A stretch of DNA of 64,000 bases from a virus, in the IMG/VR virus record IMGVR_UViG_3300036852_000503; one strand, given 5' to 3'. Numbering within the stretch: the stretch's first letter is position 1; every line of letters starts with the position of its first letter. Of the stretch, positions 55 to 64,000 are shown piece by piece. The notes beneath the pieces are model-generated. The model was not told the DNA's origin, did not search any database, and saw only the letters and a list, made by a program, of their open reading frames with translations. The position numbers and the translations under genes were made by a program.

Positions 55-1224
55 CTAGTCCCCCTTGACGTTGAGGATCTGACGCAGCGTGTGCCGCACC
101 TCGACCAGGTCGGCGGCGTCCTTCATGACGACGTCGATGTCCTTGTACGCGCCGGGGATCTCGTCGATGAACGCGTCGGTGTCGCGGTACTCGATGCCGA
201 CCATCGCCTGACGCAGGTCCTCGTGCGTGAACGTCCGACGCGCGACGGTGCGCGAGTAGTTGCGTCCGGCACCGTGCGGCGATGAGTCCAGGGCGAACCG
301 GTCGCCCTTGCCGACCACCACGTACGACGCTGTGCCCATCGAGCCGGGGATCAGACCGGCCGTGCCCACGCTCGCGTCGATCGCGCCCTTGCGGGACAGC
401 CACACCTTCTCGCCGAAGTGACGCTCCTGGACCGTGTAGTTATGATGGCAGTTGATCGTCTCCTGCCGACTGACCGGCTCGCCGATCCAGTCGGCGACGC
501 ACTTGACGACGCGGTCCATCATCTCCTCGCGGTTGAACCAGGCGAACGCCTGCGCCCACCGCATCTCGCGGATGTACTTCCAGAACTCGGGGTCACCGTG
601 GACCAGGTAGGCGAGGTCCGGGTCGGGGAGGTCGATCCACCGACGCCTGCACTGCTCGATCGCGACCTTGATGTGGTGCGTGGCGATCTTGTTGCCGACG
701 CCCCGCGAGCCGCTGTGCAGGAAGAGCCACACACGACCGACCTCGTCGACCGTCACCTCGATGAAGTGGTTGCCCGAGCCGAGCGTGCCGAGCTGAAGCT
801 CCCAGTTCGCCGCGTAGTCACTCGGATCGAACAATGAGTCATCGGCCCGGGCACGTAGCGTGTCGACGCGCAGCTCGGCCGTCGAGGTCAGCCGCGTGTT
901 GTACTTGCCGGCCGACGTCGGCACGGCGGCCTCGATGCTCTCGCGCAGCGGGCGCAGGTCCCGGTTCTTGATGTCGTCCACGTCGAACTGCGTGCGGACG
1001 GCAATCATGCCGCAGCCGATGTCGACGCCGACCGCGGCCGGCATGATCGCGCCGCGCGTGGGGATGACGCTCCCCACCGTCGCCCCCTTGCCCAGGTGCG
1101 CGTCCGGCATGAGCGCGACGTGCGGGTAGATGAACGGCATGGTCGCGATGAGCTCGGCCTGGGCGCGCGTGTTCGGCTCCAGGATCGACGCCCAGTTCAT
1201 GAGTCGGTCGTTGACTCGCTCCAT
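55..1224 (-). CDS. rtcB: RtcB-family RNA 3'-phosphate/5'-OH ligase
   Basis: 389-aa ORF with RtcB hallmarks: MPDAHLGKGATVGSVIPT, GVDIGCGM, GSGNHFIEV, HSGSRGVGNKIA, NCHHNY, PGSMGTASYVV, SSPHGAGR. AGGAA-type RBS upstream of ATG 1224. Confidence 0.93.
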   Translation of the reverse strand: MERVNDRLMNWASILEPNTRAQAELIATMPFIYPHVALMPDAHLGKGATVGSVIPTRGAIMPAAVGVDIGCGMIAVRTQFDVDDIKNRDLRPLRESIEAAVPTSAGKYNTRLTSTAELRVDTLRARADDSLFDPSDYAANWELQLGTLGSGNHFIEVTVDEVGRVWLFLHSGSRGVGNKIATHHIKVAIEQCRRRWIDLPDPDLAYLVHGDPEFWKYIREMRWAQAFAWFNREEMMDRVVKCVADWIGEPVSRQETINCHHNYTVQERHFGEKVWLSRKGAIDASVGTAGLIPGSMGTASYVVVGKGDRFALDSSPHGAGRNYSRTVARRTFTHEDLRQAMVGIEYRDTDAFIDEIPGAYKDIDVVMKDAADLVEVRHTLRQILNVKGD

Positions 1225-17203: not shown

Positions 17204-17281
17204 GGCACGGTAGCTCAACGGTAGAGCAACGAGCGGCGGGAGTCGCTCTTACGGTTCCAGGTTCGAGTCCTGGACGTGCCG
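17204..17281 (+). tRNA. tRNA-like gene with a non-canonical anticodon arm (identity undetermined)
   Basis: Acceptor GGCACGG/ACGTGCC (6 of 7 bp). D-arm GCTC-AACGGTA-GAGC. T-arm CCAGG-TTCGAGT-CCTGG. Between them are 28 nt instead of about 22: a 5-7 bp stem (GAGCG/CGCTC core) with an 8-nt loop GCGGGAGT, and a 6-nt variable region. Confidence 0.45.
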
Positions 17282-17329
17282 CGCAGCACTAGACACAGAC
17301 GCAGTGACAGTGAAAGACAGATCGGAAAA

Positions 17330-17595: not shown

Positions 17596-17667
17596 TACAT
17601 CAAAGCTCAATGGTCGAGCAACTGACTTCTAATCAGTGTGAAGCGGGTTCGATTCCCGCTGATGTCA
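17596..17667 (+). tRNA. tRNA-Arg (anticodon TCT)
   Basis: Acceptor TACATCA/TGATGTC (6 bp plus a 1-72 mismatch). D-arm GCTC-AATGGTC-GAGC. Anticodon arm ACTGA-CTTCTAA-TCAGT. Variable GTGAA. T-arm GCGGG-TTCGATT-CCCGC. Discriminator A; no encoded CCA. Confidence 0.85.
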
Positions 17668-39372: not shown

Positions 39373-40449
39373 CTAGGCGTTGACCTCACTGTTGACACGC
39401 CGACGATCCGCGGCGACCGCGTCCGACCACGACTCCCACCACTTCCAGGCGTGATCCTCGATCCGAAGCGTCGCCGCGACCGCACGGCCGGCTTCGCTCA
39501 GCTCGGACCGTCGCGCCGCGTTCTCGCGAAGCGACTTGATCGTCCGGTACCAGTCGTTGGGTCGCTCAGCCAGTAGGCCGCAACCCAGCTCGTGCAGCCG
39601 CCGGTACTCCGTGCGCGGCGACGCGACCCACGGTACGCCGACCGCGGCCAGCTCGAGCGGCTTGAGCCACGACTTGGACGCGTTGAACACCGTGTCGGCG
39701 AGCGGCGTGATGCCCACGCCGATGTGCTCGGCGAGCACGCGCGGCCAGTCCAGCAGCTCGACGGCCACGCGCAGCTGCGTCACGTAGTCGTCGCTTGGTA
39801 GGCCGAATGCCTTGCCCACGCCGGGCGACGTGCTGGTGACGTGCAGCCGCGCGCCCTCGTGCACCAGCCGTGCGACGGAGCTGCCCACGACGTCGGGGTC
39901 GTTCGGGTGAGACCCCAACGACGCGGGCCAGCCGATCACGCTGGAGTCGACGTGACGCACGTCGTAGTAGTGCGCCGCCAGGTAGTTCGGCAGCACACGG
40001 CCCCGGCCGTGCGCCGCGTAGCGCTTGACCAGCGCCGGCGTGGTCGCGGTGACCAGCGACGCGTGACGACACGCGTCGTCCAGGTTGCGCCACGAGTGCT
40101 CACCCTGGTTGCGTGGGTGCAGCATTCGCCACGCCGGGTTGTCCGGGTGGATGGTGCCGAGGTCGTCGTCCACGTCGATCACCACGGTGACGCCCTGCCC
40201 GCGCAGCGCGCGCACGGCCTGCGCCATGTACTTGTGCGTCACACGCTGGAGCACCACAACGTCGGTGCCCTCGGGAATGTCAACGTTGACCACGCGGTCG
40301 TCGCGGTCGTCGATGCGGAGGAGCAGCTTGCGCGACTCCTGCTCGATGACTGTGACGTCGTGGCCCGCCGCGCGGAGTACCTCGGCGGGCCAGATGACGC
40401 GGTGGTGACCGCAGCCGTAGTGATCGGCGGGAAAGACGAGTACCCTCAC
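39373..40449 (-). CDS. Glycosyltransferase (GT-B-like)
   Basis: 358 aa; MRVLVFPADHYGCGHHRVIWPAEVLRAAGHDVTVI N-terminus and two-lobe layout typical of phage/actinobacterial glycosyltransferases. Judged by eye. Confidence 0.55.
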   Translation of the reverse strand: MRVLVFPADHYGCGHHRVIWPAEVLRAAGHDVTVIEQESRKLLLRIDDRDDRVVNVDIPEGTDVVVLQRVTHKYMAQAVRALRGQGVTVVIDVDDDLGTIHPDNPAWRMLHPRNQGEHSWRNLDDACRHASLVTATTPALVKRYAAHGRGRVLPNYLAAHYYDVRHVDSSVIGWPASLGSHPNDPDVVGSSVARLVHEGARLHVTSTSPGVGKAFGLPSDDYVTQLRVAVELLDWPRVLAEHIGVGITPLADTVFNASKSWLKPLELAAVGVPWVASPRTEYRRLHELGCGLLAERPNDWYRTIKSLRENAARRSELSEAGRAVAATLRIEDHAWKWWESWSDAVAADRRRVNSEVNA

Positions 40450-54884: not shown

Positions 54885-56648
54885 TTACAGGTTGAAGCCG
54901 GTGCCGTTAGCGGAGCCGGTGCGACCGTTGACGGCGAAGTTGATCGTGTACTGCCTGGACTCGTGACCCACCCGGGCGATCAGGTGGCACTCCTCCGACC
55001 ACGCCGCGGTGTGGTCGTTCGTGGCGTTCAGCACGCTGTCCCGCACGATGCCGAGGTCCAGGGAGAGACCGTTGCCGAGGACGAACGTGCCCGCCGCGTA
55101 GATCATGATCGTCGCCGACGTCGGCCACGCGGTCAGCGCGGTGGCGTTGCCGAACTGGCCGGCGCCGCGCACCTGGTAGTCGTTGACCCACTGGACCCGC
55201 ACGTTGATCGTGGCGAAGTCCGAGTCGATCTCGGCGTCGCTGATCTGGTTTGCCTCCACGCCGGTGCGCCACGCGAGGTCGGCCCGGATGGTGGCCTTCA
55301 GCCAGTACGGCGCGATGACCTCCAGGACGTCGTCCTGGCACATGCCGTAGCGGGCCCGGTAGTCCGTGGCGCCGAGTGAGATGCCGCCGTAGACCTGCTG
55401 GTAGACCGGCTGGCCGGTGACCGCGTAGTTGCCGGTGCTGATCGCCGCGGCCGACAGCGTGGTCATCTGCTGGAGGAATCGGCCGTTCATGGCGTGCGCG
55501 TGCGCCGACATGAGCAGCTGGAGGAAGTTGGACGTCGCCTCGGGGTACGCGTCGTCGGTCAGGTTGCCCGCCGTCAGGCAGACGCCGTAGCACTCGAGGC
55601 GCGTGTCGGTGAACGTCGGGCACGGGACGCGGACACACGGCTTGGTCGGCGAGCCGGTGACCGCGGCGATGTCGCTCGCCTCGGTCCAGAGCCACGGGTT
55701 GGACGTGACGCTGAACGCCGTGCTGAAGCCGCCGAACGCGACGCCGCTGAAGACGTCGGCGAGCGACGGGGAGACCGGGAACCGAACGCCGCCGCGGCTG
55801 ACGCCGAACGTCGGGAGGTCGACCAAGCCGTCCTCGCACGCGATGTTGAAGAAGTCGTACCGGACCTCGGACGGCGCGCACCAGCCACCGGCCGCGACCA
55901 GCGCGTTCTTCTTGTCCTGCGAGGTGATGTGCCGCAGCAGCTCGCCGACCTGACCGAGCGAGGTGCGGTCGTCGACCGTGTGCTCATACTCGTTGCGGAT
56001 CGTCGCCACGAGCTGCTGGTTCGGCGCGTTCTGCGTGACCGGCATCGCGCGGGCCTTCTTCTGGAAGATCTCCGTGAGACCGTCCAGCCCGTTGACGCCG
56101 TCGCCGCGCGCGACGCCCGGGATGTCCACGCTCGCGGTGACCGCCAGCTTGGCCCGGGGCGGCGACGCGGTGACGGGCGCGAACTGCTGCGCCTGCGACA
56201 GCGAGGCGCGCTGCGTGGCCTGCGTCACGGCGCGCGGCGACATGCGGTCGCCGAGGATGTTGACCAGTGCGGCCGTGGCGCCCTGCGTCGCCGCGGCCGC
56301 GATGGCCGTGAGGTCGATCGCCGGTGCCGCGCTCGGCTTGGTGCTGTCGAGCTGCTGCGCGCCGTGCACACGCGCGTCGAGCATGGCCTGCTGCGCGATG
56401 AGCTTCGCACGCTCGGCCTCGCTGGCCTGCGCGGCGCGAGCGACCCGGCCCTGAAGTTCGGCGCGGATCCGATCCAGACCGTCGGCCAGCTTCGCGGCGT
56501 AGGAGACGATCTCCGGGGAGACCTCCTCCGCGTTGATGCGGGTGTACTCGGCGACGATCTGCGCCTCGAGTGTCGACAGTTCCTCGTGCGACGTGATGAG
56601 GGTGAGATCCTGCGGAACGTTCACAAGCTCCTCAGGCTTTCCGGGCAC
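54885..56648 (-). CDS. Major capsid protein with an N-terminal scaffold-like coiled coil
   Basis: 587 aa. The first roughly 120 aa are helical/charged (AELQGRVARAAQASEAERAKLIAQQAMLDARV), followed by AAGGWCAPSEVRYDF...PCVRVPCP. Follows the protease gene after a 200-nt leader. Confidence 0.65.
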   Translation of the reverse strand: MPGKPEELVNVPQDLTLITSHEELSTLEAQIVAEYTRINAEEVSPEIVSYAAKLADGLDRIRAELQGRVARAAQASEAERAKLIAQQAMLDARVHGAQQLDSTKPSAAPAIDLTAIAAAATQGATAALVNILGDRMSPRAVTQATQRASLSQAQQFAPVTASPPRAKLAVTASVDIPGVARGDGVNGLDGLTEIFQKKARAMPVTQNAPNQQLVATIRNEYEHTVDDRTSLGQVGELLRHITSQDKKNALVAAGGWCAPSEVRYDFFNIACEDGLVDLPTFGVSRGGVRFPVSPSLADVFSGVAFGGFSTAFSVTSNPWLWTEASDIAAVTGSPTKPCVRVPCPTFTDTRLECYGVCLTAGNLTDDAYPEATSNFLQLLMSAHAHAMNGRFLQQMTTLSAAAISTGNYAVTGQPVYQQVYGGISLGATDYRARYGMCQDDVLEVIAPYWLKATIRADLAWRTGVEANQISDAEIDSDFATINVRVQWVNDYQVRGAGQFGNATALTAWPTSATIMIYAAGTFVLGNGLSLDLGIVRDSVLNATNDHTAAWSEECHLIARVGHESRQYTINFAVNGRTGSANGTGFNL

Positions 56649-56850: not shown

Positions 56851-59430
56851 TTAAACCTCCTTGAGAATGCGCTTGCCCAGCATTGCCATGACGTGCTTGA
56901 GCGCGTCGCTGTCACGCTCCTGCTCGGTCATGATGTTGCCGATGGTCATGAAGCCCGCGGCCACCAGCGACTGCGGTACGCCGCTGGCGATGCGCGCCCG
57001 CGTGCGCAGGTGGAAGCCCGCGACGTTGACGCCGAGTAGACCGACCAGGCGCAGCTCGCCGCCGATGCGCCGCCAGTCGCCGCTCACTCGGCCGGACGCC
57101 CGCAAATCGTGCACGCGCGCCGACTCGGCGTGCGGTCGGATCGCGCCGGCGACCCAGATGCCGACCTCGTCGTTACCCACGACGACGTCGGCGACGACGC
57201 TGCCCGTGTTGTCGTAGTGCTCGGCGGCGCGCGACGCGCGGTACGACAGCGGCGCGTGGCCGGTGGCCACCGTGATCTGGCCCACGGCGACGTGCGAGCC
57301 GTCGGCGCACACCACCTCACCGGTCATGAAGTACGGGTGCGCGTCCTCGACCGGCGGGCTCACGCAGATGTCGTCGAACCCGACGTGGCACTCACCCCAC
57401 TGCGCGGCGTGCCCGTAGACGCGACCCTGGTCGGTGATGGTGATGCCGACGGGAACGCTGAGTCCCGGGTTCTCGAACCACGCGCTCGGCGGTCGCCACG
57501 CGTCCAGCTTGGCCTGCTCGGCCGCGGCCACCAGCGTCGCGTCGTTGAACTGCGCCGGTGGTGGCTCGCGGTCGGCGTCGCGGAGGTGCGCGGCCAGGTG
57601 ATCGTAAATACCCTGACGCTCGCCGGCCGGCACCGTTGTGCCGCCTCGACCGCCGTTGAGTACGCCGATGCCGCTGGAGCACGCCGTGAGGTTGGCCGCG
57701 CCGGGCTTGCCGTCGGCCCCGACCTCGTGGTGCAGGAACTTGGCGGCCGACTTCGTGACCTTGCCGTTCTCCACCGCACCGTCGTCGAGCCAAGCGTAGC
57801 CCATGCGAGCCGTGTCGACGGACATCGGCGACGGCAACCGCTTCTCGTTGATGCCAACATCCCAGGGGACATCTGACGTGGCCGTAGAATGCGTGCCAAC
57901 GGCGCCAAACTTCAGCTCCGCTACGGCTGCCAGGGCGGCCGTGAGCGCGTCGACGTCGTCGCCGACCAGCGAGACGGTCGCCTCGACGAATGCCGGGATG
58001 TCGACCAGTGTGGCCCCGCGAACGCGCCCGCCGTGGTATACGATCTTCTCCGGGCGGCCGAACAGCGCGTCCAGTGGGTTGCCGGCGTCGCCCTCGTCCC
58101 CCGTGGGCGACTCCGGCCAGACGACCTCGACGTCCGCGTCGGCGATGTCGTCGGCGTCGATCGAGATGCCGCCCGCGAAGCCGTCGTTGAGCCTGCGGCG
58201 GATCTCGAAGCCGTCGGGGCTCTTGATGTCGAGCACGCCCGCGCCCATGATCTTCTCGCCGTCGCGCCACACCTTGTCGGCTCGACCGACGGTCACGGTG
58301 ACGTCGTGCTCGCCGCCGTGCGCCGTCTCCTTCTGCCAGCGGATCAGCACCTGGTCCGCCCACGTGAGCGCGCCGGGTGCGAACTCGCGACCGTCGCCGG
58401 TGGTGATGCCCTCGACGGCCAGGACGCCCGTCCACAAGCGCGCCTTCTCGAACTCGGCGTCGGTCATGAACGAACCGTCGCCAACACGCTGGTAGCCGGC
58501 GGGCGTCTCGCCGTCGCCGGGCATCATCTTGTCGCCAGGCATGCCGTCACCACCGGTCACGGCGAACGTACTGGTCGAGACGACGCCCATCTTTCCACCT
58601 TCGTCGTTGGTGTAGAGCGCGGCAATCTGCTCGTCGGCGGACTGCTCGGTGTCGTGGCAACCCATGACCTCGTCGTTGTCATCCTGCACGACGGCCCACG
58701 GTTCGGCCGCCGAGCACGCGGCGTGGTTCTCCACCTTGTGCCACGGCATCGGTGCACCTCCCAATGATGATGTTAGTGTAACAGGTTCGCCCAACGGCAC
58801 GTCGGTGACGTCATTCCCGAACGCGACACGGACCTGATCGAACGTCACCGGGCCGACTCGCTCCGAAACGGCATCCAGTAGATCCTCATCTGAGTACGCA
58901 ATGCAAATGTGCGGCTGCCACGGCATGTGCTGCTCGGGCATGTCGAATTCGCTGAGATTCGACCTAATGAGGGCACGGATCGTCGCGAGCTGCGACTGAC
59001 CGTCCTCACTGGTCTCGTCGCTCGCGTCGCCGACGTTGACGACCCACGCCGGCTCGTCGCTCCCGGGGTTCCAGTGTGCCACGCCGAACGCGTTGCCCTG
59101 GATCGGCCAGAACTCACGGGCCACCTCCGTCACCGCGTCGACGACGTAGTTGCGCACGTCATCCGGGAAGTCGCTCTTACCCAGGTACCAGAGGGTGAGG
59201 TGCAGCTCGTCGGCGGGTTCGTACCCGTCGAGCGCGAGTCGCGCGACGTCGGCGTCGCTTGGGACCAGGGCGATCATGCCACCGTCGAACTTATCTGTGT
59301 TAACTGCCGCGGTGACGACGTCCAGAGGTTCACCGTTGAGTAGTCGTGTGATCTCGTCGTTGGTGAAGCCCTCGTCCTCATCCACCACGGTGAACATGAC
59401 GTTATTCGGATCGGACAACGGCGTTGACAC
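56851..59430 (-). CDS. Capsid maturation protease with an N-terminal 2H (LigT-like) phosphoesterase domain
   Basis: 859 aa. Residues about 50-205 carry two HxT/S-type motifs (ELHLTLWYLG; QPHICIAYS) in LigT-like spacing. The middle and C-terminal parts resemble prohead protease regions (GVLAVEGITTGDGREF..., GHAAQWGECHVGF). Confidence 0.6.
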   Translation of the reverse strand: MSTPLSDPNNVMFTVVDEDEGFTNDEITRLLNGEPLDVVTAAVNTDKFDGGMIALVPSDADVARLALDGYEPADELHLTLWYLGKSDFPDDVRNYVVDAVTEVAREFWPIQGNAFGVAHWNPGSDEPAWVVNVGDASDETSEDGQSQLATIRALIRSNLSEFDMPEQHMPWQPHICIAYSDEDLLDAVSERVGPVTFDQVRVAFGNDVTDVPLGEPVTLTSSLGGAPMPWHKVENHAACSAAEPWAVVQDDNDEVMGCHDTEQSADEQIAALYTNDEGGKMGVVSTSTFAVTGGDGMPGDKMMPGDGETPAGYQRVGDGSFMTDAEFEKARLWTGVLAVEGITTGDGREFAPGALTWADQVLIRWQKETAHGGEHDVTVTVGRADKVWRDGEKIMGAGVLDIKSPDGFEIRRRLNDGFAGGISIDADDIADADVEVVWPESPTGDEGDAGNPLDALFGRPEKIVYHGGRVRGATLVDIPAFVEATVSLVGDDVDALTAALAAVAELKFGAVGTHSTATSDVPWDVGINEKRLPSPMSVDTARMGYAWLDDGAVENGKVTKSAAKFLHHEVGADGKPGAANLTACSSGIGVLNGGRGGTTVPAGERQGIYDHLAAHLRDADREPPPAQFNDATLVAAAEQAKLDAWRPPSAWFENPGLSVPVGITITDQGRVYGHAAQWGECHVGFDDICVSPPVEDAHPYFMTGEVVCADGSHVAVGQITVATGHAPLSYRASRAAEHYDNTGSVVADVVVGNDEVGIWVAGAIRPHAESARVHDLRASGRVSGDWRRIGGELRLVGLLGVNVAGFHLRTRARIASGVPQSLVAAGFMTIGNIMTEQERDSDALKHVMAMLGKRILKEV

Positions 59431-62400
59431 TAGGCACCTCCCTCAACGACGACGCGAAGCTTCACTACTCGATCTTTTGGATTATCTGGGTGCGGCTGCG
59501 AACTGATGATCTTAAACTGCGTGCCGGGCGCCAGCGCCATCTCATTCTCATCCGGCCAGTAACTTAGCTCCTTGAGCCACGCCATTCGCGAGCCCTTGGG
59601 CGCGTCGATTTCAATGTGAACGTTGCCGCTCCAAATCCCATTCTTGATGCTCGTGCTCATGACGCCCTTGTCCGTGATGGTCTTACCCACCATCTCGTCC
59701 AGTTTTTCAGGCACGTACACACCAAACGAGTTAAATGTAGTCTTGCGATACAGCACAATGTCGTCGGTGCTTGTCTTCATTGCCGCGTTGATCTGCGCAA
59801 TAGTCTTGCGGGTGCCCTCCGTGCAACCTTGGTAGCCGGTGCCGCGTAGGCAGTTGTTGACCTGAACGTACGCCGGACCTGTGTACTTCTTAAGCGCGGC
59901 GCGCTGCGCACCGTTGATCGGCGGCGGATCGACCACGTTCATACGCTTCTGCAGTTCGTTCGCGTCAGCCTCCGTGAGCTCACGCGGTAGCGGTGTGAAC
60001 GACACCGTGGGTTTGGGGGTTGGGTTGCTTTGCAGCAACGCGTGCTTCTTACCACCAGGTGTTTCGAGAAACGCGTGAACCTTGGTGTAGAACGGCTTGG
60101 TGGGGCCACCTTTGTCCGACTGGTCCATAATGTTGAGCGCATCGTTCATAGTTAGTCCAGGATGTGTCTTGGACACTTCGAACGCGGCGTCGTACATCTT
60201 CTTGCCCGGACTGCTCGCCTTGGCGCTGTGCTTCTGGAAGATGGCCTTCGTCTTGATCACGTCATCAACTGGGTACTTCTTCTCGATGACTGGTGTCGGC
60301 ATGTTCAACACAGGCTCGATCGGCTTCTCACCGGTGATGTACCGGTCGATAAGATCTTGCCGGCGCAGCGTGAGCTTCTGCTTGAGCTTAGCCGCGGTGG
60401 CGCCGGTGAACCCGGCGGCGTCTACCAGCTGATTGATCTGGTGAGGTTCGATGGCCTCGATTTTCTTGACACCCTTGCGAATGTCGTCGTCGGTGATGTC
60501 GGCGTAGATCTTTGCAGCAATTGGGTTGAGAGTCTTATCACGCAGCGAGCTGGTTTCGGTAACGGCGTCGCCAAAGTTGAGACCCTTCGGTGACCCATCC
60601 GCACGGTAGAGTAGTGAGCCACTTGGGTCTGTGCGCACCGGGTGGCCTGGCTTATCGGCGATGATGTTCTCACCGTAACCGCCGACCTCCGTGTTGCCAA
60701 GCCACGCGTCGATCGCGAAGTCCTCGTACAACTTACTCTTAAACTGTGGGTTGTCCATGTTCTGCGACATCTTGCCGAGGCCCTGGACGTGCTTCCACTG
60801 CGTGCCTAGTTCATTGGTCTTGCCATGGAAGAACATGTTGTCGACGGCGACGAACTCGGCATCGGGCACGTCGACGCCCGCGAGCTGGTACAGCTTACTT
60901 GCCAGAAGCGTGTTGCGGGCGGCCGACTGCGAGGGCGCGGACCTAACGTAGACTTCATCACCGTTCGGATCGGCGAACACCGCGCCCTTCGCGAAGCTGG
61001 GAGGCGTCAACCGCTTGTATCCGGCCATGGGCTTGACGTTGGCGATCGACGTCAGGGGCGACTTAGGCACCGTGGGCGACGTGGTCAACGGAGCCGACGT
61101 GGTGGGTGCGGCTGGTGCGGCCGGCGTCGTCGGCGCGATCGTCTTGACCAATTCGTCCGACGTGACCGGCTTGGTTGACGCGCTCGGTCCAGGTGCGCTC
61201 GGCTGCTTACTGGCGCCGCTTCCGTACCGATTGATCAGATCCTGACGCCGGGCCTTCAACTTCGTCTTCAGTTCTTCCGAGGTGTTGCCGGAGCTGAAGT
61301 TCGCCGCGTCCACCATGTCGTCGATCTGCTTAGGTGTGATGGCCTCGATCTTGGCCACACCCCTGCGAATGTCCTCGTCGGTGATGTCGGCAAAGATCTT
61401 CGCGCTCTGCGCGTTGAGCGCGGGGTTGCGCAGCGTGTTGATCTCGGTGACCGTGTCGCCGAAGCTTGAACCCTTCGGCGTACCTTGCGCGCGGAAGAGT
61501 AGCGCGCCGCCGGAGTCGATGCGCGCCGGCTCGCCGCTCTTGTCGGTGATGACGTTGTCGTAACCCAAGCCGACGACATCCCAGTTTGCGAGCCACGCGT
61601 CGGCGGCGAAACCCTCATAGAACTTACGCTTGAATTCTGGATCCTTGATTCTCGTCGCGATGTTGGTGTCACCCGTGATGATGCGCGACTTGGTGCCGAG
61701 CGCGCCGTTCTTTCCCGGAAACGACGCGTCGTCCAACTTGACCAGCTCGACGTCCGGCGTCCGAACGCCCGCGAGTTCGTACAGCTTGTTGGCCAACACC
61801 TCGTTCTTGGCGTGGTTACCGCTCTTCGACGCCTTCACGTAGTGAAAGTCACCGTTGGGATCGATAAACGACCCACCCTGCTGCGATCCTTGCTTCCCAC
61901 CTACCTTGGTGAACCCCGCCATTGGCATGGGGTCGTCGATCAGCTTCTTAGGCTTGGCGGGTGTCGTCGCCTGCGCCGCGGTCGGACCGTTGTCGTCACC
62001 CGGCTCGAACCACTCGGCGTCGTACGACTTAATGGCGTCATACGCCTTGGTCTTAATGGCCGTCTGGTCAACCTGCCACTCGCCGTTGGCCTGCCTACTC
62101 TGCAGACTGTACCGGTCGCCCTCCCACACGATGCGCTTGTCACCGCTCTTGTTCGTGGCGAGCGTCGTGCCGGCTGGTCGCTTCTTATGCACCAGGGCGT
62201 GCGTGATCTTAAGAGGCTTACCCGGCGTCTTGGCACTAGGTGACGTTCTGGACGGCGCACCAGGTGACGTTGTCGTCGGCACGTTCGTCGTCGCCGTCTT
62301 ACCCTCGTCACCCGGCTCGAACCACGAGGGCGCGTACGCGTTGACCGCCACGTACGCCTTGGTCTTGATCGCGGTCTGATCGGTCTGCCACTCACCGCTG

Positions 62401-63698
62401 GATCGCTTGTGTTGGAGGTTGTACTGCGTGCCGTCCCAGACGACCCGCTTGCTCTGGTCACCGCTCACCGCCGTGACGGTGCCCGGCTCACGCTTCTTGT
62501 GAATGAACGCGTGCGTGATCTTTACCTGCTTGCCGAGTGCACCGGCTGAGCTGGACTTACCGGACGGCCCAGGTGGGCTACCCAAGTCTCCCGCACTCGG
62601 CGCACCCGACGACTTAGCAGCCGAGTCGTCATCGTCATCCGGCGTGAACCACTCGGTATCGAAAGCCTTGATCGCGTTGTACGCCTTGGTCTTAATCGCA
62701 GTCTCTTCAACGGTCCACTCGCCGTTAGGCTGCTTCCGCTGGAGATTATAATACATACCTCCCCACACAGCACGCTTATCACCGGTCTTGTTGATCGCAA
62801 TGACCGTTCCCGGCTCGTGCTTCTTGTGGATCAGCGCGTGCGTGATCTTAAGTGACTTGCTGGACGCGCCACCCGGAGTCTTGGCGAACTTACCGTCGCT
62901 GTCGCGTGGGTGCTTTCCCGGAGTCCAGTTGGGCGACGCCGCGGCGGCCAACGTGTCGTCGTAGTCGAGGAACTCATCATCCGGGATGTCCCAGATCAAA
63001 GTGCACCTGCAGTTAATGGTCTCACCCGGCGGTGCGGTGGGATCGTGCGGCCGGTCCATCGGGTAGCCGCCTACCGTGAACTTTCCGCGCATGTCGACGA
63101 CCTCGCCGTTGACGGCGACGTGCGTCGGGCGCGTGTGGCCGTCGTGCGTGGCGAGCCACTCCTTGGTGGCGTCCAGCGTCGTGGCCGTCATCTGCGCGTA
63201 CGAGCCCGCCTCGCTCGCGGCCATCACCTCGTTGCGCGCGATCACTTCGGCGCGCGGCAGCGCGATGTCGGTGGTCGCGACGATGCGATCACGGATCTGG
63301 TCGATGCTCTCGCCGTTGAGGTTGCCCTCGATCATCTGCTCCCGCGCGACGTTCCAGACTAGGTCGCCGATGTCGCGCAGCCGGTTCTTAACGCCCACGC
63401 GAAAGAAGTCGGCGATCGACTGCACCACGCGCGGAATGCTGATGGCCGCGGTCAGCGCGTGCTCGTGTAGCTGCCGCCACGTGTCGTCCGCCGACTCCCG
63501 CCACACGCGCATGACGTGATCGGCGAGTCGCTGGTCGATGCGAATCGCCCACTGCGTGCGGATCGTGATGAGGTCGTCCACGCTACGCACGCGTGATGCG
63601 ACGTGCTTCAGCGTCGCTGTGACTTCACGCCGGACGAGCGCGGCGAACTCGTCGCCGCGCCGGTCCAGCTGCTCAAGAGTGGGACCCGTTACGCGCAC
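59430..63698 (-). CDS. MuF-like minor capsid protein fused to repeats, two kinase-like modules and a C-terminal ADP-ribosyltransferase toxin domain
   Basis: 1422 aa. MuF/SPP1 gp7 motif HTRPTHVAVNGEVV...PPGETINCRCTL. Three repeats of about 70 aa (KITHA(L/F)(I/V)HKK...AIKTKAY...WF(E/T)P). Two paralogous modules of about 235 aa. ART R-S-E motifs VLYRKT, VMSTSIK, PDENEMA. Confidence 0.85.
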   Translation of the reverse strand: MRVTGPTLEQLDRRGDEFAALVRREVTATLKHVASRVRSVDDLITIRTQWAIRIDQRLADHVMRVWRESADDTWRQLHEHALTAAISIPRVVQSIADFFRVGVKNRLRDIGDLVWNVAREQMIEGNLNGESIDQIRDRIVATTDIALPRAEVIARNEVMAASEAGSYAQMTATTLDATKEWLATHDGHTRPTHVAVNGEVVDMRGKFTVGGYPMDRPHDPTAPPGETINCRCTLIWDIPDDEFLDYDDTLAAAASPNWTPGKHPRDSDGKFAKTPGGASSKSLKITHALIHKKHEPGTVIAINKTGDKRAVWGGMYYNLQRKQPNGEWTVEETAIKTKAYNAIKAFDTEWFTPDDDDDSAAKSSGAPSAGDLGSPPGPSGKSSSAGALGKQVKITHAFIHKKREPGTVTAVSGDQSKRVVWDGTQYNLQHKRSSGEWQTDQTAIKTKAYVAVNAYAPSWFEPGDEGKTATTNVPTTTSPGAPSRTSPSAKTPGKPLKITHALVHKKRPAGTTLATNKSGDKRIVWEGDRYSLQSRQANGEWQVDQTAIKTKAYDAIKSYDAEWFEPGDDNGPTAAQATTPAKPKKLIDDPMPMAGFTKVGGKQGSQQGGSFIDPNGDFHYVKASKSGNHAKNEVLANKLYELAGVRTPDVELVKLDDASFPGKNGALGTKSRIITGDTNIATRIKDPEFKRKFYEGFAADAWLANWDVVGLGYDNVITDKSGEPARIDSGGALLFRAQGTPKGSSFGDTVTEINTLRNPALNAQSAKIFADITDEDIRRGVAKIEAITPKQIDDMVDAANFSSGNTSEELKTKLKARRQDLINRYGSGASKQPSAPGPSASTKPVTSDELVKTIAPTTPAAPAAPTTSAPLTTSPTVPKSPLTSIANVKPMAGYKRLTPPSFAKGAVFADPNGDEVYVRSAPSQSAARNTLLASKLYQLAGVDVPDAEFVAVDNMFFHGKTNELGTQWKHVQGLGKMSQNMDNPQFKSKLYEDFAIDAWLGNTEVGGYGENIIADKPGHPVRTDPSGSLLYRADGSPKGLNFGDAVTETSSLRDKTLNPIAAKIYADITDDDIRKGVKKIEAIEPHQINQLVDAAGFTGATAAKLKQKLTLRRQDLIDRYITGEKPIEPVLNMPTPVIEKKYPVDDVIKTKAIFQKHSAKASSPGKKMYDAAFEVSKTHPGLTMNDALNIMDQSDKGGPTKPFYTKVHAFLETPGGKKHALLQSNPTPKPTVSFTPLPRELTEADANELQKRMNVVDPPPINGAQRAALKKYTGPAYVQVNNCLRGTGYQGCTEGTRKTIAQINAAMKTSTDDIVLYRKTTFNSFGVYVPEKLDEMVGKTITDKGVMSTSIKNGIWSGNVHIEIDAPKGSRMAWLKELSYWPDENEMALAPGTQFKIISSQPHPDNPKDRVVKLRVVVEGGA

Positions 63699-64000
63699 CG
63701 TTCACCCGCCGTTCTGCATCGGCAATCAACTGCTCGTCGTGCGGGAACACACGACTGCCAATGATGAACTCACCCTTGGTGTCGAGCCAGCACTCGTAGC
63801 TACCGTTCGTGCCGGGGTGCACGCTGACGCCCTCGAACGTCGCGTGCGTGAACGGGCACGAGAACAGCTTCGGCTGACACAGTAGCGGGTGCTTGAGGCG
63901 CCAGCCGGCGACGGTGAACTCGATGACGTGCGTCGACTTCGCCTGCAGGATGGTGAACGCGTAGTCACGCGAGCCCGCCTGGGTCGACGCCGCCGGAGCC
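63673..64000 (-). CDS. 3' end of an upstream structural gene (probably portal), partial
   Basis: Not in the ORF track. The frame is open from the window edge to TGA 63673-75 with high GC3; ...YAFTILQAKSTHVIEFTVAGWRLKHPLLCQPKLFSCPFTHATFEGVSVHPGTNGSYECWLDTKGEFIIGSRVFPHDEQLIADAERRVNGARNGSHS. Overlaps the MuF start by 26 nt. Confidence 0.6.
   Translation of the reverse strand, partial: APAASTQAGSRDYAFTILQAKSTHVIEFTVAGWRLKHPLLCQPKLFSCPFTHATFEGVSVHPGTNGSYECWLDTKGEFIIGSRVFPHDEQLIADAERRVNGARNGSHS

Follow-up and report, generated by a model that had tools for sequence, protein, structure and literature searches.

What does a phage do with a head-morphogenesis protein that carries about 1150 residues beyond its head domain? 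A sequence-only reading of the 64-kb window (the whole stretch of 64,000 nucleotides analysed here) had described one open reading frame (ORF) as a MuF protein with an ADP-ribosyltransferase (ART) toxin domain at its far end and extra modules in between, implying that several activities are injected together. Proteins that enter the cell with phage DNA act ahead of phage gene expression, as the first line of takeover and anti-defence, and very few injected phage effectors have been characterised, T4 Alt being the classic example.

The gene, its neighbours and its relatives

The ORF and the genes that place it are the following:

59430..63698, minus strand: whole ORF with GTG start, MuF–R3–K2–mid–ART fusion protein, 1422 aa (open reading frame listing)
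63679..64000, minus strand: C-terminal end of the upstream gene, putative portal, overlapping the MuF start and cut by the window end (tblastn)
56851..59430, minus strand: downstream gene, 859 aa, 2H/LigT-like phosphoesterase (aa 38–215) and prohead protease/scaffold (aa 330–846) (PHROG matches)
54885..56648, minus strand: major capsid protein (phrog_777 at 4e-124)

The GTG start of the fusion ORF is sound, because the N-terminus of the protein, MRVTGPTLEQLDRRGDEFAALV, lines up position by position with those of its relatives, MARVTGPSRDELDARGDEFAARV. That the ORF arose by chance or joins two genes was ruled out by a GC3 of 0.79 over the whole ORF, the conserved N-terminus and architecture and the absence of internal stops. 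The protein has a mass of ~150 kDa, and its passage through a tail would require unfolding or cleavage; its linkers are long, flexible and rich in P/S/T/A/G.

The visible end of the upstream gene is 54% identical (tblastn) to aa 524–615 of a 618-aa protein of the relative L004, which is encoded directly upstream of the L004 MuF gene. In the relatives, the gene order is TerL, DUF1360, portal-orthologue gene and MuF fusion. The downstream 859-aa gene overlaps the stop codon of the fusion gene by 1 nt and is 60% and 65% identical to two separate L004 genes, one of which is a Pfam 2_5_RNA_ligase2 protein; the gene that follows the MuF fusion in the relatives encodes a 2H orthologue of 295–299 aa. 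PHROG matches identify protease/scaffold, capsid, adaptor and tape-measure genes downstream of the fusion gene, and the capsid protein is 33–35% identical to capsid proteins of Streptomyces and Gordonia phages. Given the capsid gene at 54885..56648, the fusion gene therefore lies inside the head-morphogenesis module. As judged from these alignments, it sits between the putative portal gene and the protease and capsid genes, a synteny common to the relatives.

The phage has an estimated genome of ~84–100 kb and is apparently lytic. The window carries a lytic-type replication gene set consisting of DNA polymerase I, helicase, primase, exonuclease, Sak4, SSB, thymidylate synthase and RtcB. Actinobacterial hosts were assigned because of the ~66% GC content and the relatives of the capsid protein. 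The phage was found in soil, and its hosts are of the high-GC (actinobacterial) type.

Public metagenomes contain an identical protein and ~30 homologues. The plan MuF–R(1–5)–K(0–2)–mid–ART recurs in ~20 metagenomic relatives, which differ in the number and type of their modules, and more distant MuF–R–K–mid–ART proteins exist as well. A megablast search of the fusion gene against 50,697 phage genomes returned no match, and none of the deposited phage genomes covered at least 80% of the fusion protein. The protein had also been called unusually long, which is true in relation to MuF toxins; it is, however, of ordinary length in its own family (949–1720 aa) and small beside polyvalent proteins.

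The terminal MuF and ART domains

The ~1000 residues between the MuF and ART domains, previously unannotated, were resolved into R, K and mid domains strung like beads along the chain; the full set of domains is as follows:

62964..63698, minus strand: MuF/SPP1 gp7-type head-morphogenesis domain, aa 1–245 (Pfam PF04233 and PHROG)
62631..62855, minus strand: R1 repeat, aa 282–356 (HMM copy coordinates; pairwise BLAST)
62304..62528, minus strand: R2 repeat, aa 391–465 (HMM copy coordinates; pairwise BLAST)
61992..62216, minus strand: R3 repeat, aa 495–569 (HMM copy coordinates; pairwise BLAST)
61215..61931, minus strand: K1, predicted HipA/CtkA-like protein-kinase-fold domain, aa 590–828 (AF2 model and Foldseek)
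60330..61037, minus strand: K2, degenerate K1 paralogue, aa 888–1123 (BLAST and motif table)
59964..60296, minus strand: mid domain, conserved orphan module of ~110 aa, aa 1135–1245 (jackhmmer)
59433..59963, minus strand: ART domain, R-S-E type with ExE, aa 1246–1422 (PF03496 and PDB sequence matches)
59745..59747, minus strand: ART R1318, in the motif LYRKT (aa 1316–1320)
59649..59657, minus strand: ART S1348-T-S1350, in the motif MSTS (aa 1347–1350)
59541..59549, minus strand: ART E1384-N-E1386, the motif ENE (aa 1384–1386)

Phage_Mu_F (PF04233) matches aa 120–235 (nt 62994–63341) with an E value of 3.9e-14, its score of 53.8 bits exceeding the cut-off of 29.6, and thus places the MuF domain at the N-terminus, where the sequence-only reading had put it. 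The head-morphogenesis family phrog_2468 matches aa 39–235 at 7.9e-34, and ten PHROG families of head-morphogenesis, portal-fusion and related head proteins match the MuF protein at E ≤1e-11. Membership of the MuF family was judged on two points, and both were found: a profile score above the curated threshold and a gene directly after the putative portal gene in the head module. Besides MuF and ART, no other Pfam or PHROG domain family was detected in the fusion protein; MPTase, ArdC and SNF2 were not seen.

At the opposite end, ADPrib_exo_Tox (PF03496) matches aa 1262–1403 (nt 59490–59915) with an E value of 2.3e-18, scoring 66.7 bits where the cut-off is 23.4. The R-S-E type ART with LYRKT, MSTS and ENE motifs that had been read from the sequence at the C-terminus also aligns with ARTs of solved structure: the catalytic R, STS and ExE are in register with those of Lmo0066 (8za7; E 1.6e-12) and Vip2 (1qs2; 6e-5), and further PDB matches are 1ojq and 2gwm. 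Among 82 homologous domains, the R is kept in all 82, the S in 79 and the two E residues in 77 and 82, respectively. This near-invariance of the triad indicates selection for catalysis and, to judge from ExE, the acceptor may be arginine. By its sequence, the domain belongs to the VIP2/C3/SpvB group of protein-modifying ARTs, with the triad intact; a match to Alt-like ARTs was weak (phrog_802, E 0.004).

The modules in between

The centre of the protein is occupied by two K domains of ~240 aa each that are 51% identical to each other. The AF2 model of K1 has a pLDDT of 94.4, and its best PDB match in Foldseek is Helicobacter pylori CtkA (3akl; E 2.7e-7, TM 0.67), followed by HipT (8ezr; TM 0.51), PI4K and eukaryotic-type kinases. 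We take CtkA to belong with the HipA-like kinases, a grouping backed here by the presence of both CtkA and HipT among the top fold matches. The idea that the protein combines several activities is thereby strengthened, the model pointing to a second enzyme type in the middle, with K1 adopting a HipA/CtkA-like kinase fold next to a degenerate K2.

The motifs of K1 can be assigned as G604-S-Q-Q-G-G609, K622, E633, N705-W-D707, N715 and D728, with IDSGG as the Mg-binding motif. On this alignment, the Gly-loop, Lys, Glu, catalytic Asp/Asn and Mg-binding Asp are all kept, so that the catalytic-type set appears complete. The catalytic loop, NWDVVGLGYDN, is without the His of the DxHxxN loops of the HipA/PI3K type and is three residues longer; distant K-like copies have a loop NHDAHxxxN, three residues shorter than that of K1. 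In K2, the Gly-loop is changed to SFAKGA, the Lys to Arg919 and the catalytic Asp to Glu1004, with Asp1024 kept. Because most catalytic motifs are lost or altered, K2 is probably a pseudokinase.

The kinase relationship is seen by fold comparison only. A per-member Pfam scan left K1 without a match at E ≤1, and a K profile found none among PDB sequences. HipA_C is matched by 3 of 19 aligned K sequences (best 7.6e-5) and HipA_2, weakly, by 2 of the 19; the homologue P0086 scores 16.3 bits against HipA_C/HipA_2, for which the cut-off is 30.5. A PI3_PI4_kinase Pfam match in the homologue P0039 was rejected as evidence on K, as it lies at aa 384–429 and the K domain at aa 1146–1377. Because the catalytic loop is atypical, the substrate of K could be a protein or a small molecule, and its chemistry is uncertain.

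K domains also occur in other contexts. Some relatives carry copies of a second kind, which we call type B; these are without the Lys and the Mg-binding Asp, keep the NWD loop and are strongly conserved, and in some relatives they are the only K domain. Standalone K genes are found in the head modules of unrelated phages, in one case directly after a MuF gene. K and ART are combined in giant, MuF-less single proteins of phages of Pseudomonas, Yersinia and Aeromonas. The K-containing protein of Pseudomonas phage Jeremy is labelled only ‘ADP-ribosyltransferase’, and those of Gordonia phages Forza, Sixama and GodonK and of Actinomycetia phage DSL-LC01 are labelled ‘hypothetical protein’. For the K domain, unannotated in deposited genomes, the fold match reported here is thus a first structural assignment.

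The remaining modules have no recognisable counterparts in the databases searched. The R repeats are basic alpha/beta units of ~75 aa, with R1 55–64% identical to R2 and R3 (pairwise BLAST). An AF2 model of the repeat has a pLDDT of 92; Foldseek gave best E values of 0.3 in the PDB (single propeller-blade-like meanders) and 0.096 in BFVD, a sequence profile found no PDB match and tblastn found none in deposited phage genomes. A word-indexed homologue search with one repeat returned no match, and an exhaustive HMMER search recovered 68 representative proteins. A faint PcrA_UvrD_tudor match (Pfam E 0.63, 19 residues) raised the idea of RNA-polymerase binding, which was dropped because the fold search gave it no support. 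The mid domain was found by jackhmmer in 61 of 111 sequences (110 collected proteins and the Jeremy protein) and, among relatives of the fusion protein, always lies directly N-terminal to ART. In a PDB profile search, mid matched nothing better than 22 residues of flavivirus NS5 (E 0.12), and Pfam gave no match.

Predicted function and relation to known systems

We consider that the fusion protein is probably a multi-enzyme host-takeover effector that is packaged in the head and co-injected with the DNA, like T4 Alt. This reading builds on observations: which domains are present, how their catalytic residues are patterned, where the gene lies in the head module and how far the family conserves these features. 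According to work cited in PMC5512222 and PMC5576092, SPP1 gp7 is the one head protein known to leave with the DNA. Anchoring at the portal within the procapsid has been shown for gp7, and on that precedent the MuF domain would hold the fusion protein there too. From the analogy with T4 Alt and the position of the gene, we infer that the virion contains the C-terminal cargo and releases it together with the DNA at infection, whole or after cleavage in the P/S/T/A/G-rich linkers. In the new host, the ART would use NAD+ to mono-ADP-ribosylate one or more host proteins and K1 would phosphorylate one or more host proteins as a Ser/Thr kinase. Together they would disable host machinery or defences, or divert them, ahead of phage gene expression. 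K2, predicted to be catalytically impaired, probably assists K1 in regulation or in docking to the target, and the R repeats and mid would serve as non-catalytic spacer or binding modules. Viewed in this way, the fusion protein and its ~20–60 metagenomic relatives suggest that some soil actinophages deliver an ART and a kinase on one portal-anchored polypeptide.

A bolder reading, which we regard as doubtful, is that K and the VIP2-type ART form a conserved two-enzyme cassette of phage-delivered effectors, recurring in actinophage MuF fusions and in the MuF-less giant proteins of Pseudomonas, Yersinia and Aeromonas phages, whose members cooperate on one host target or pathway. Phosphorylation and ADP-ribosylation would then, for example, be sequential or mutually dependent; type B K, instead of being a dead relic, may have gained a new activity on its kinase fold or be dedicated to target recognition; and the R repeat and mid would serve targeting or packaging, as new modules specific to this family.

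Against the proposed injected effector stands the possibility that the enzymes are not ejected at all and act late, in the virion-producing cell, by modifying host or phage proteins during morphogenesis or by blocking superinfection. The MuF fusion would then only secure co-expression with the head genes, or else the prohead protease would remove the cargo ahead of packaging. The fusion gene does lie in a late head operon, a late role in superinfection immunity has been proposed for HipA-family kinases by Benler et al. (PMC8008677), and the long flexible linkers and adjoining protease gene make clipping plausible. However, the cargo is covalently attached to an SPP1 gp7-type protein and has remained so in ~20 relatives and in the distant MuF–R–K–mid–ART proteins, an attachment that a purely cytoplasmic late enzyme would not need. 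T4 Alt, moreover, is also made late and packaged in the head, yet it is active early in the next cell. We therefore judge late action in the producing cell to be unlikely.

The fusion protein could also be a prophage-encoded MuF polymorphic toxin (Jamet et al. 2017) that is set free in or with phage particles and kills competitors of the lysogen, the producer being guarded by a cognate immunity protein. It resembles such toxins (PMC5576092) in joining an N-terminal MuF trafficking domain to a variable, swappable C-terminal toxin; ARTs recur there, at 14% of 191 MuF toxins, and the modules of our protein vary between relatives. Along the ORF, GC3 is 0.88 in MuF but 0.72 in mid and ART, a drop that would be compatible with cassette exchange. 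Several observations nevertheless make this explanation very unlikely. A small immunity ORF (<150 aa) was sought next to the fusion gene and none was found, the adjoining genes being the putative portal gene and the stop-overlapping gene for the 859-aa 2H–protease fusion. No macro-, ARH- or HipB/HipS-type antidote was matched among the scanned ORFs (PHROGs only). The genes are of lytic type, and no integrase or repressor was present among the 30 larger ORFs scanned in the window; the window covers 64 kb of a contig of at least 84 kb, the rest of which may carry a lysogeny module. Finally, the protein carries tandem modules and not a single toxin.

We give similarly little credence to the proposal that K is a phosphotransferase for small molecules or nucleic acids, or has SelO/SidJ-like chemistry, and that the ART targets nucleic acid or NAD+ (as an NADase): the His-less catalytic loop with its three-residue insertion, the additional Foldseek matches to aminoglycoside and lipid kinases, namely APH(3′) (TM 0.35), PI4K and YtaA, the conservation of type B copies that have lost Lys and Mg-binding Asp and sometimes stand alone, and the nucleotide or RNA chemistry suggested by the neighbouring 2H phosphoesterase and RtcB all speak for it, but the best neighbours of K1 by a clear margin are protein Ser/Thr kinases (CtkA at 0.67 and HipT at 0.51, against 0.35 for APH), HipA is the only sequence-family signal, and the ART falls by sequence in the VIP2/C3/SpvB group with ExE.

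A virion-delivered MuF–ART effector, the core of the reading we favour, is an idea already known, because MuF–VIP2 ART fusions have been described in the lytic Microbacterium phages Percival (cluster EH), Goodman and Johann (cluster EJ), where they are predicted to be virion-associated (PMC7302621). Fusion to MuF is frequent among Alt/VIP2 ARTs (PMC9503650), and the ART activity of a MuF–ART toxin, EFV from an Enterococcus faecalis prophage, has been proven according to a report cited in PMC5576092. Virion delivery of MuF-fused effectors is in this literature a hypothesis drawn from genomic context and from the analogy with SPP1 gp7 and T4 Alt (PMC5576092, PMC5512222, PMC9503650). Our protein shares with the Microbacterium fusions the MuF domain, the R-S-E VIP2-type ART, actinobacterial hosts, the location in a head module, the apparently lytic lifestyle and the predicted virion association. 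By contrast with those proteins, which are two-domain as described, it has an insert of ~1000 aa that holds three R repeats, K1, K2 and mid.

The arrangement also recalls the polyvalent proteins (Iyer et al. 2017, PMC5512222), which have several linker-separated effector domains and virion-gene neighbours, are predicted to be packaged and injected, and have MuF, ART and kinase domains among their recorded building blocks. They are recognised by at least two effector-type domains on one polypeptide of a phage or conjugative element, encoded among virion or transfer genes, and the fusion protein, encoded in a head module, has the ART and the predicted kinase K1, besides K2, three R repeats and mid. 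The polyvalent kinase, however, is a C-lobe-less ePK family of Verrucomicrobia and Bacteroidetes, whereas K is HipA/CtkA-like; and from the polyvalent repertoire of H-Y-D ART-PolyVal, MPTase, ArdC-N, SNF2, DdrB-ParB and LPD nothing was encountered in the Pfam search, the ART here being of the R-S-E type. T4 Alt, which is packaged and injected (PMC9503650, PMC5512222) and modifies RNA polymerase, is likewise of the R-S-E type; it is produced late, travels in the head and is active at the start of the next infection. It differs in that a capsid-targeting sequence, not MuF, directs it to the head and in that it has no kinase partner, and the sequence relation is only at the level of the superfamily.

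Among the canonical motifs of the HipA family are a Gly-rich loop, a catalytic motif and a Mg2+-binding motif (PMC8262856), and K1 resembles HipA, HipT and CtkA in its modelled fold, N-terminal Gly-rich loop, Lys, catalytic Asp/Asn loop and Mg-binding Asp. It departs from that family in its longer, His-less catalytic loop, in having no Pfam-significant match and no adjoining HipB- or HipS-type antitoxin gene, in lying inside a virion protein whose neighbours are the putative portal and the protease, and in being duplicated, with one copy degenerate. Phage kinases near virion genes have precedents: HipA-family kinases are encoded between the portal and capsid genes in ‘Gratiaviridae’ (Benler et al., PMC8008677), and the T7 kinase disarms host defences (PMC13645617). 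What is new is the pairing of a predicted kinase with a probable pseudokinase, and the presence of R and mid as orphan modules, on a known MuF–ART core; if the predicted activity is real, these modules are new material for the study of effector packaging and host-target recognition.

Domain layout of the MuF fusion and its ADP-ribosyltransferase

The MuF fusion occupies nucleotides 59430..63698 on the minus strand and encodes 1422 aa from a GTG start, exactly as the sequence-only reading had placed it. Its N-terminus matches those of relatives almost residue for residue in the alignment, so the GTG start is correct. The two domains proposed in that reading, an N-terminal MuF domain and a C-terminal ADP-ribosyltransferase (ART), were both recovered by Pfam well over the curated cut-offs: Phage_Mu_F covers aa 120-235 with E = 3.9e-14, and ADPrib_exo_Tox covers aa 1262-1403 with E = 2.3e-18. 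PHROGs concurred, with head-morphogenesis families (to 8e-34) and an ADP-ribosyltransferase exoenzyme family (2e-9). No significant match to aa 245-1240 was obtained in Pfam, NCBIfam or PHROGs. Pairwise comparison of segments revealed two repeat families within these middle ~1000 residues, namely three R repeats of ~75 aa (55-64% mutual identity) and two K domains of ~240 aa (51% identity).

Modules of the MuF fusion, with HMM-derived boundaries
aa 1-245, MuF
aa 282-356, 391-465 and 495-569, R repeats
aa 590-828, K1
aa 888-1123, K2
aa 1135-1245, 'mid', a conserved module
aa 1246-1422, ART

The linkers between modules are 54-76% Pro/Ser/Thr/Ala/Gly, and the protein is organized as independent domains on a string. 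Along the gene (59433-63698, minus strand), GC3 is 0.88 in MuF, 0.77 in R, 0.82 in K1, 0.77 in K2 and 0.72 in mid plus ART; neighbouring genes have values of 0.85-0.95. The drop from MuF to ART is compatible with gain of the cargo modules by recombination from a lower-GC source.

The ART motifs that had been picked out by eye, LYR1318KT, MS1348TS1350 and E1384NE1386, are all found, and they lie in register with the catalytic Arg, STS and ExE of solved enzymes. The best such match is Lmo0066 (8za7; E = 1.6e-12), followed by Vip2, C3 and SpvB. Among the 82 homologous ART domains gathered, the Arg is conserved in 82, the first Ser in 79 and the two Glu in 77 and 82, respectively; this near-invariance argues that the domain is under selection for catalysis. 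The ExE motif suggests arginine acceptors.

Kinase-like K domains and the R and mid modules

A word-indexed search returned 17 K homologues, all but one of which lack Pfam annotation; the exception also has an ART domain. Their alignment contains the invariant or near-invariant pattern GSNxGG ... YVK ... NE ... DAWLANWDV.G...DN ... R(I/V)DxGG ... RAQGxPKG, which is typical of an ATP-phosphotransferase site. AlphaFold2, run on the alignment of homologues, gave a very confident K model (pLDDT 94.4, pTM 0.92). In a Foldseek search of the PDB, the best five matches to this model were all CtkA, a secreted Ser/Thr kinase of Helicobacter pylori (E = 2.7e-7, TM 0.67); further down came additional bacterial Ser/Thr kinases, HipT (TM 0.51), PI4K, numerous kinases of eukaryotic type and aminoglycoside kinases. 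The K profile had no match among PDB sequences, and the sole sequence-family signal was a weak HipA_C/HipA_2 similarity in a few homologues. We take CtkA to belong to the HipA-like group, a placement supported here only by the presence of both CtkA and HipT among the top fold matches and by the weak HipA_C profile matches of K homologues. On this evidence, K belongs to the protein-kinase-like superfamily as a highly divergent member, closest to the HipA/CtkA branch, and present family libraries do not recognize it.

When all K copies were aligned, two types emerged. Type A has the complete motif set and includes K1 of the window (G604-G609, K622, E633, D707, N715 and D728), an active-looking copy. 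In type B, the Gly-loop is replaced, the Lys is lost, RIDxGG becomes RTNxGG and RAQG becomes RANG. K2 of the window lies between the two, with the loop SFAKGA, Lys replaced by Arg919, the catalytic Asp replaced by Glu1004 and Asp1024 retained, from which we infer that it is catalytically impaired. Conservation is good among the type B copies themselves, and several relatives have no other K domain; a non-canonical function is probable for them.

The R repeat was found in just 68 of 1.84 billion representative proteins, almost always within very large proteins, and had 0 matches in 50,697 deposited phage genomes. The repeats are basic (pI ~9.5), and the model, a confident one (pLDDT 92), begins with a short helix, continues as an antiparallel meander of four strands and ends in a C-terminal helix. 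Neither PDB nor BFVD yielded a significant structural neighbour, and no sequence-profile neighbour was found. The mid module, always immediately N-terminal to ART within the MuF fusion family, was detected in 61 of 111 sequences (110 collected proteins and one from Pseudomonas phage Jeremy that is annotated as 'ADP-ribosyltransferase') and has no counterpart in PDB or Pfam. Our guess is that R and mid are binding or spacer modules.

Relatives and genomic context

A protein identical to the MuF fusion has been recorded on an 84-kb JGI contig, and ~20 proteins with 35-45% identity lie on contigs of up to ~100 kb. All of these relatives are built as MuF - R(1-5) - K(0-2) - mid - ART, now and then with an insert (an intein in P0031; a ParB-like stretch, seen by eye, in P0019); more distant MuF-R-K-like-mid-ART proteins were also found. 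In two relatives' loci (95-kb and 99.7-kb contigs), the gene order is TerL - DUF1360 - portal - MuF fusion - 2H - protease - capsid. Beyond this family, K occurs with ART in the 1213-aa Jeremy protein and in matching Yersinia and Aeromonas phage proteins. It also occurs, with 40% identity to the window K, in a 3289-aa 'hypothetical protein' of Actinomycetia phage DSL-LC01, whose gene follows that for the portal at a distance of a few genes and precedes the capsid-maturation-protease gene. Standalone K genes lie immediately after a Phage_Mu_F gene in a Mu-like head module (P0014) and immediately before a large terminase gene (P0001). The relative L004 has two extra standalone ART genes, which are absent from the window and had no match to the window ART (tblastn, 1e-5; too divergent).

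Related genes in other phages
L003 4801-14670 (Actinomycetia phage DSL-LC01, OQ999401.1 52800-62669), giant 3289-aa head-module protein with a K domain
L009 5422-7801 and L008 7001-9128, genes for a standalone K domain, in the head modules of unrelated phages
L004 13073-14808 (99.7-kb Logan contig SRR17298996_22506), two standalone ADPrib_exo_Tox genes (288 and 289 aa) between the 2H and protease genes

The window is a phage genome. The C-terminus of a portal orthologue lies upstream of the MuF fusion; downstream, on the same strand, are a 2H-phosphoesterase/prohead-protease fusion, major capsid, head-tail adaptor, tape-measure and tail proteins. Genes elsewhere in the window encode DNA polymerase I, helicase, primase, exonuclease, a Sak4-like annealing protein, SSB, thymidylate synthase, a methyltransferase and RtcB; two tRNA genes are also present. 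The capsid protein shares only 33-35% identity with its counterparts in Streptomyces, Gordonia and Mycobacterium phages; this, together with a GC content of ~66%, points to an uncultured actinophage.

Further features of the window
56851-59430, minus strand, 2H/LigT-like phosphoesterase (aa 38-215) joined in frame to prohead protease/scaffold (aa 330-846); gene following the MuF fusion
17204-17282, plus strand, tRNA-like gene with an abnormal two-base 'anticodon' (tRNA-???, gg; ARAGORN)
17596-17667, plus strand, normal tRNA-Arg(tct), ~300 bp downstream of the tRNA-like gene (ARAGORN)
55-1224, minus strand, RtcB-type RNA ligase (phrog_1075, E = 1.7e-142)
39373-40449, minus strand, glycosyltransferase at the end of the tail module (phrog_7162, E = 5e-31)

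In L004, the halves of the 2H-protease fusion are two separate genes, encoding a 299-aa Pfam 2_5_RNA_ligase2 protein and a 577-aa protein (60% and 65% identity). Fusions of 2H domains with MuF or portal proteins have been noted (PMC9503650), and the 2H-protease fusion could be a second head-delivered enzyme. RtcB, the 2H domain and the tRNA genes suggest an RNA-repair or anti-tRNA-cleavage theme. Relatives carry a sugar-nucleotide enzyme cluster (epimerase, UDP-glucose dehydrogenase, glycosyltransferases) upstream of the terminase gene.

Proposed role and comparison with known systems

The best-supported reading is that the MuF fusion is a head-packaged multi-effector. What is shown directly is which domains the protein contains, that their catalytic residues are conserved and that the gene lies in the head module; we infer its packaging, ejection, processing, activity and targets by analogy. 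The MuF domain would dock the protein at the portal, and the cargo would exit the virion together with DNA, as precedents for packaged or ejected head proteins suggest (SPP1 gp7 and T4 Alt; PMC5512222, PMC9503650). ART would then modify host proteins by ADP-ribosylation, and K1 would phosphorylate them; further precedents are the EFV MuF-ART toxin (PMC5576092), the MuF-VIP2 fusions of lytic Microbacterium phages (PMC7302621) and the T7 kinase with its anti-defence role (PMC13645617). Alternatively, the protein may act only late and within the cell, a role that has been put forward for the HipA-like kinases of 'Gratiaviridae' (PMC8008677). A polymorphic toxin fits less well, as it presupposes a temperate phage, an immunity gene and a function in killing other bacteria, but the gene content looks lytic (no integrase among the 30 larger ORFs scanned in the 64-kb window) and no immunity ORF is present, the MuF fusion stop codon overlapping the next gene's start by one base and so leaving no space for a small one.

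The main value of the finding is that it supplies concrete, testable candidates for injected enzymes, along with a structural annotation for K, now labelled 'hypothetical' in several sequenced phages. Because MuF joined to VIP2/Alt-type ART is an established architecture (PMC9503650, PMC7302621, PMC5576092), the MuF-ART core was already known. The insertion of a HipA/CtkA-like kinase with its degenerate twin, R and mid are neither described in the literature examined nor annotated in the databases searched, and the MuF fusion combines features that were kept apart in the study of Iyer et al.
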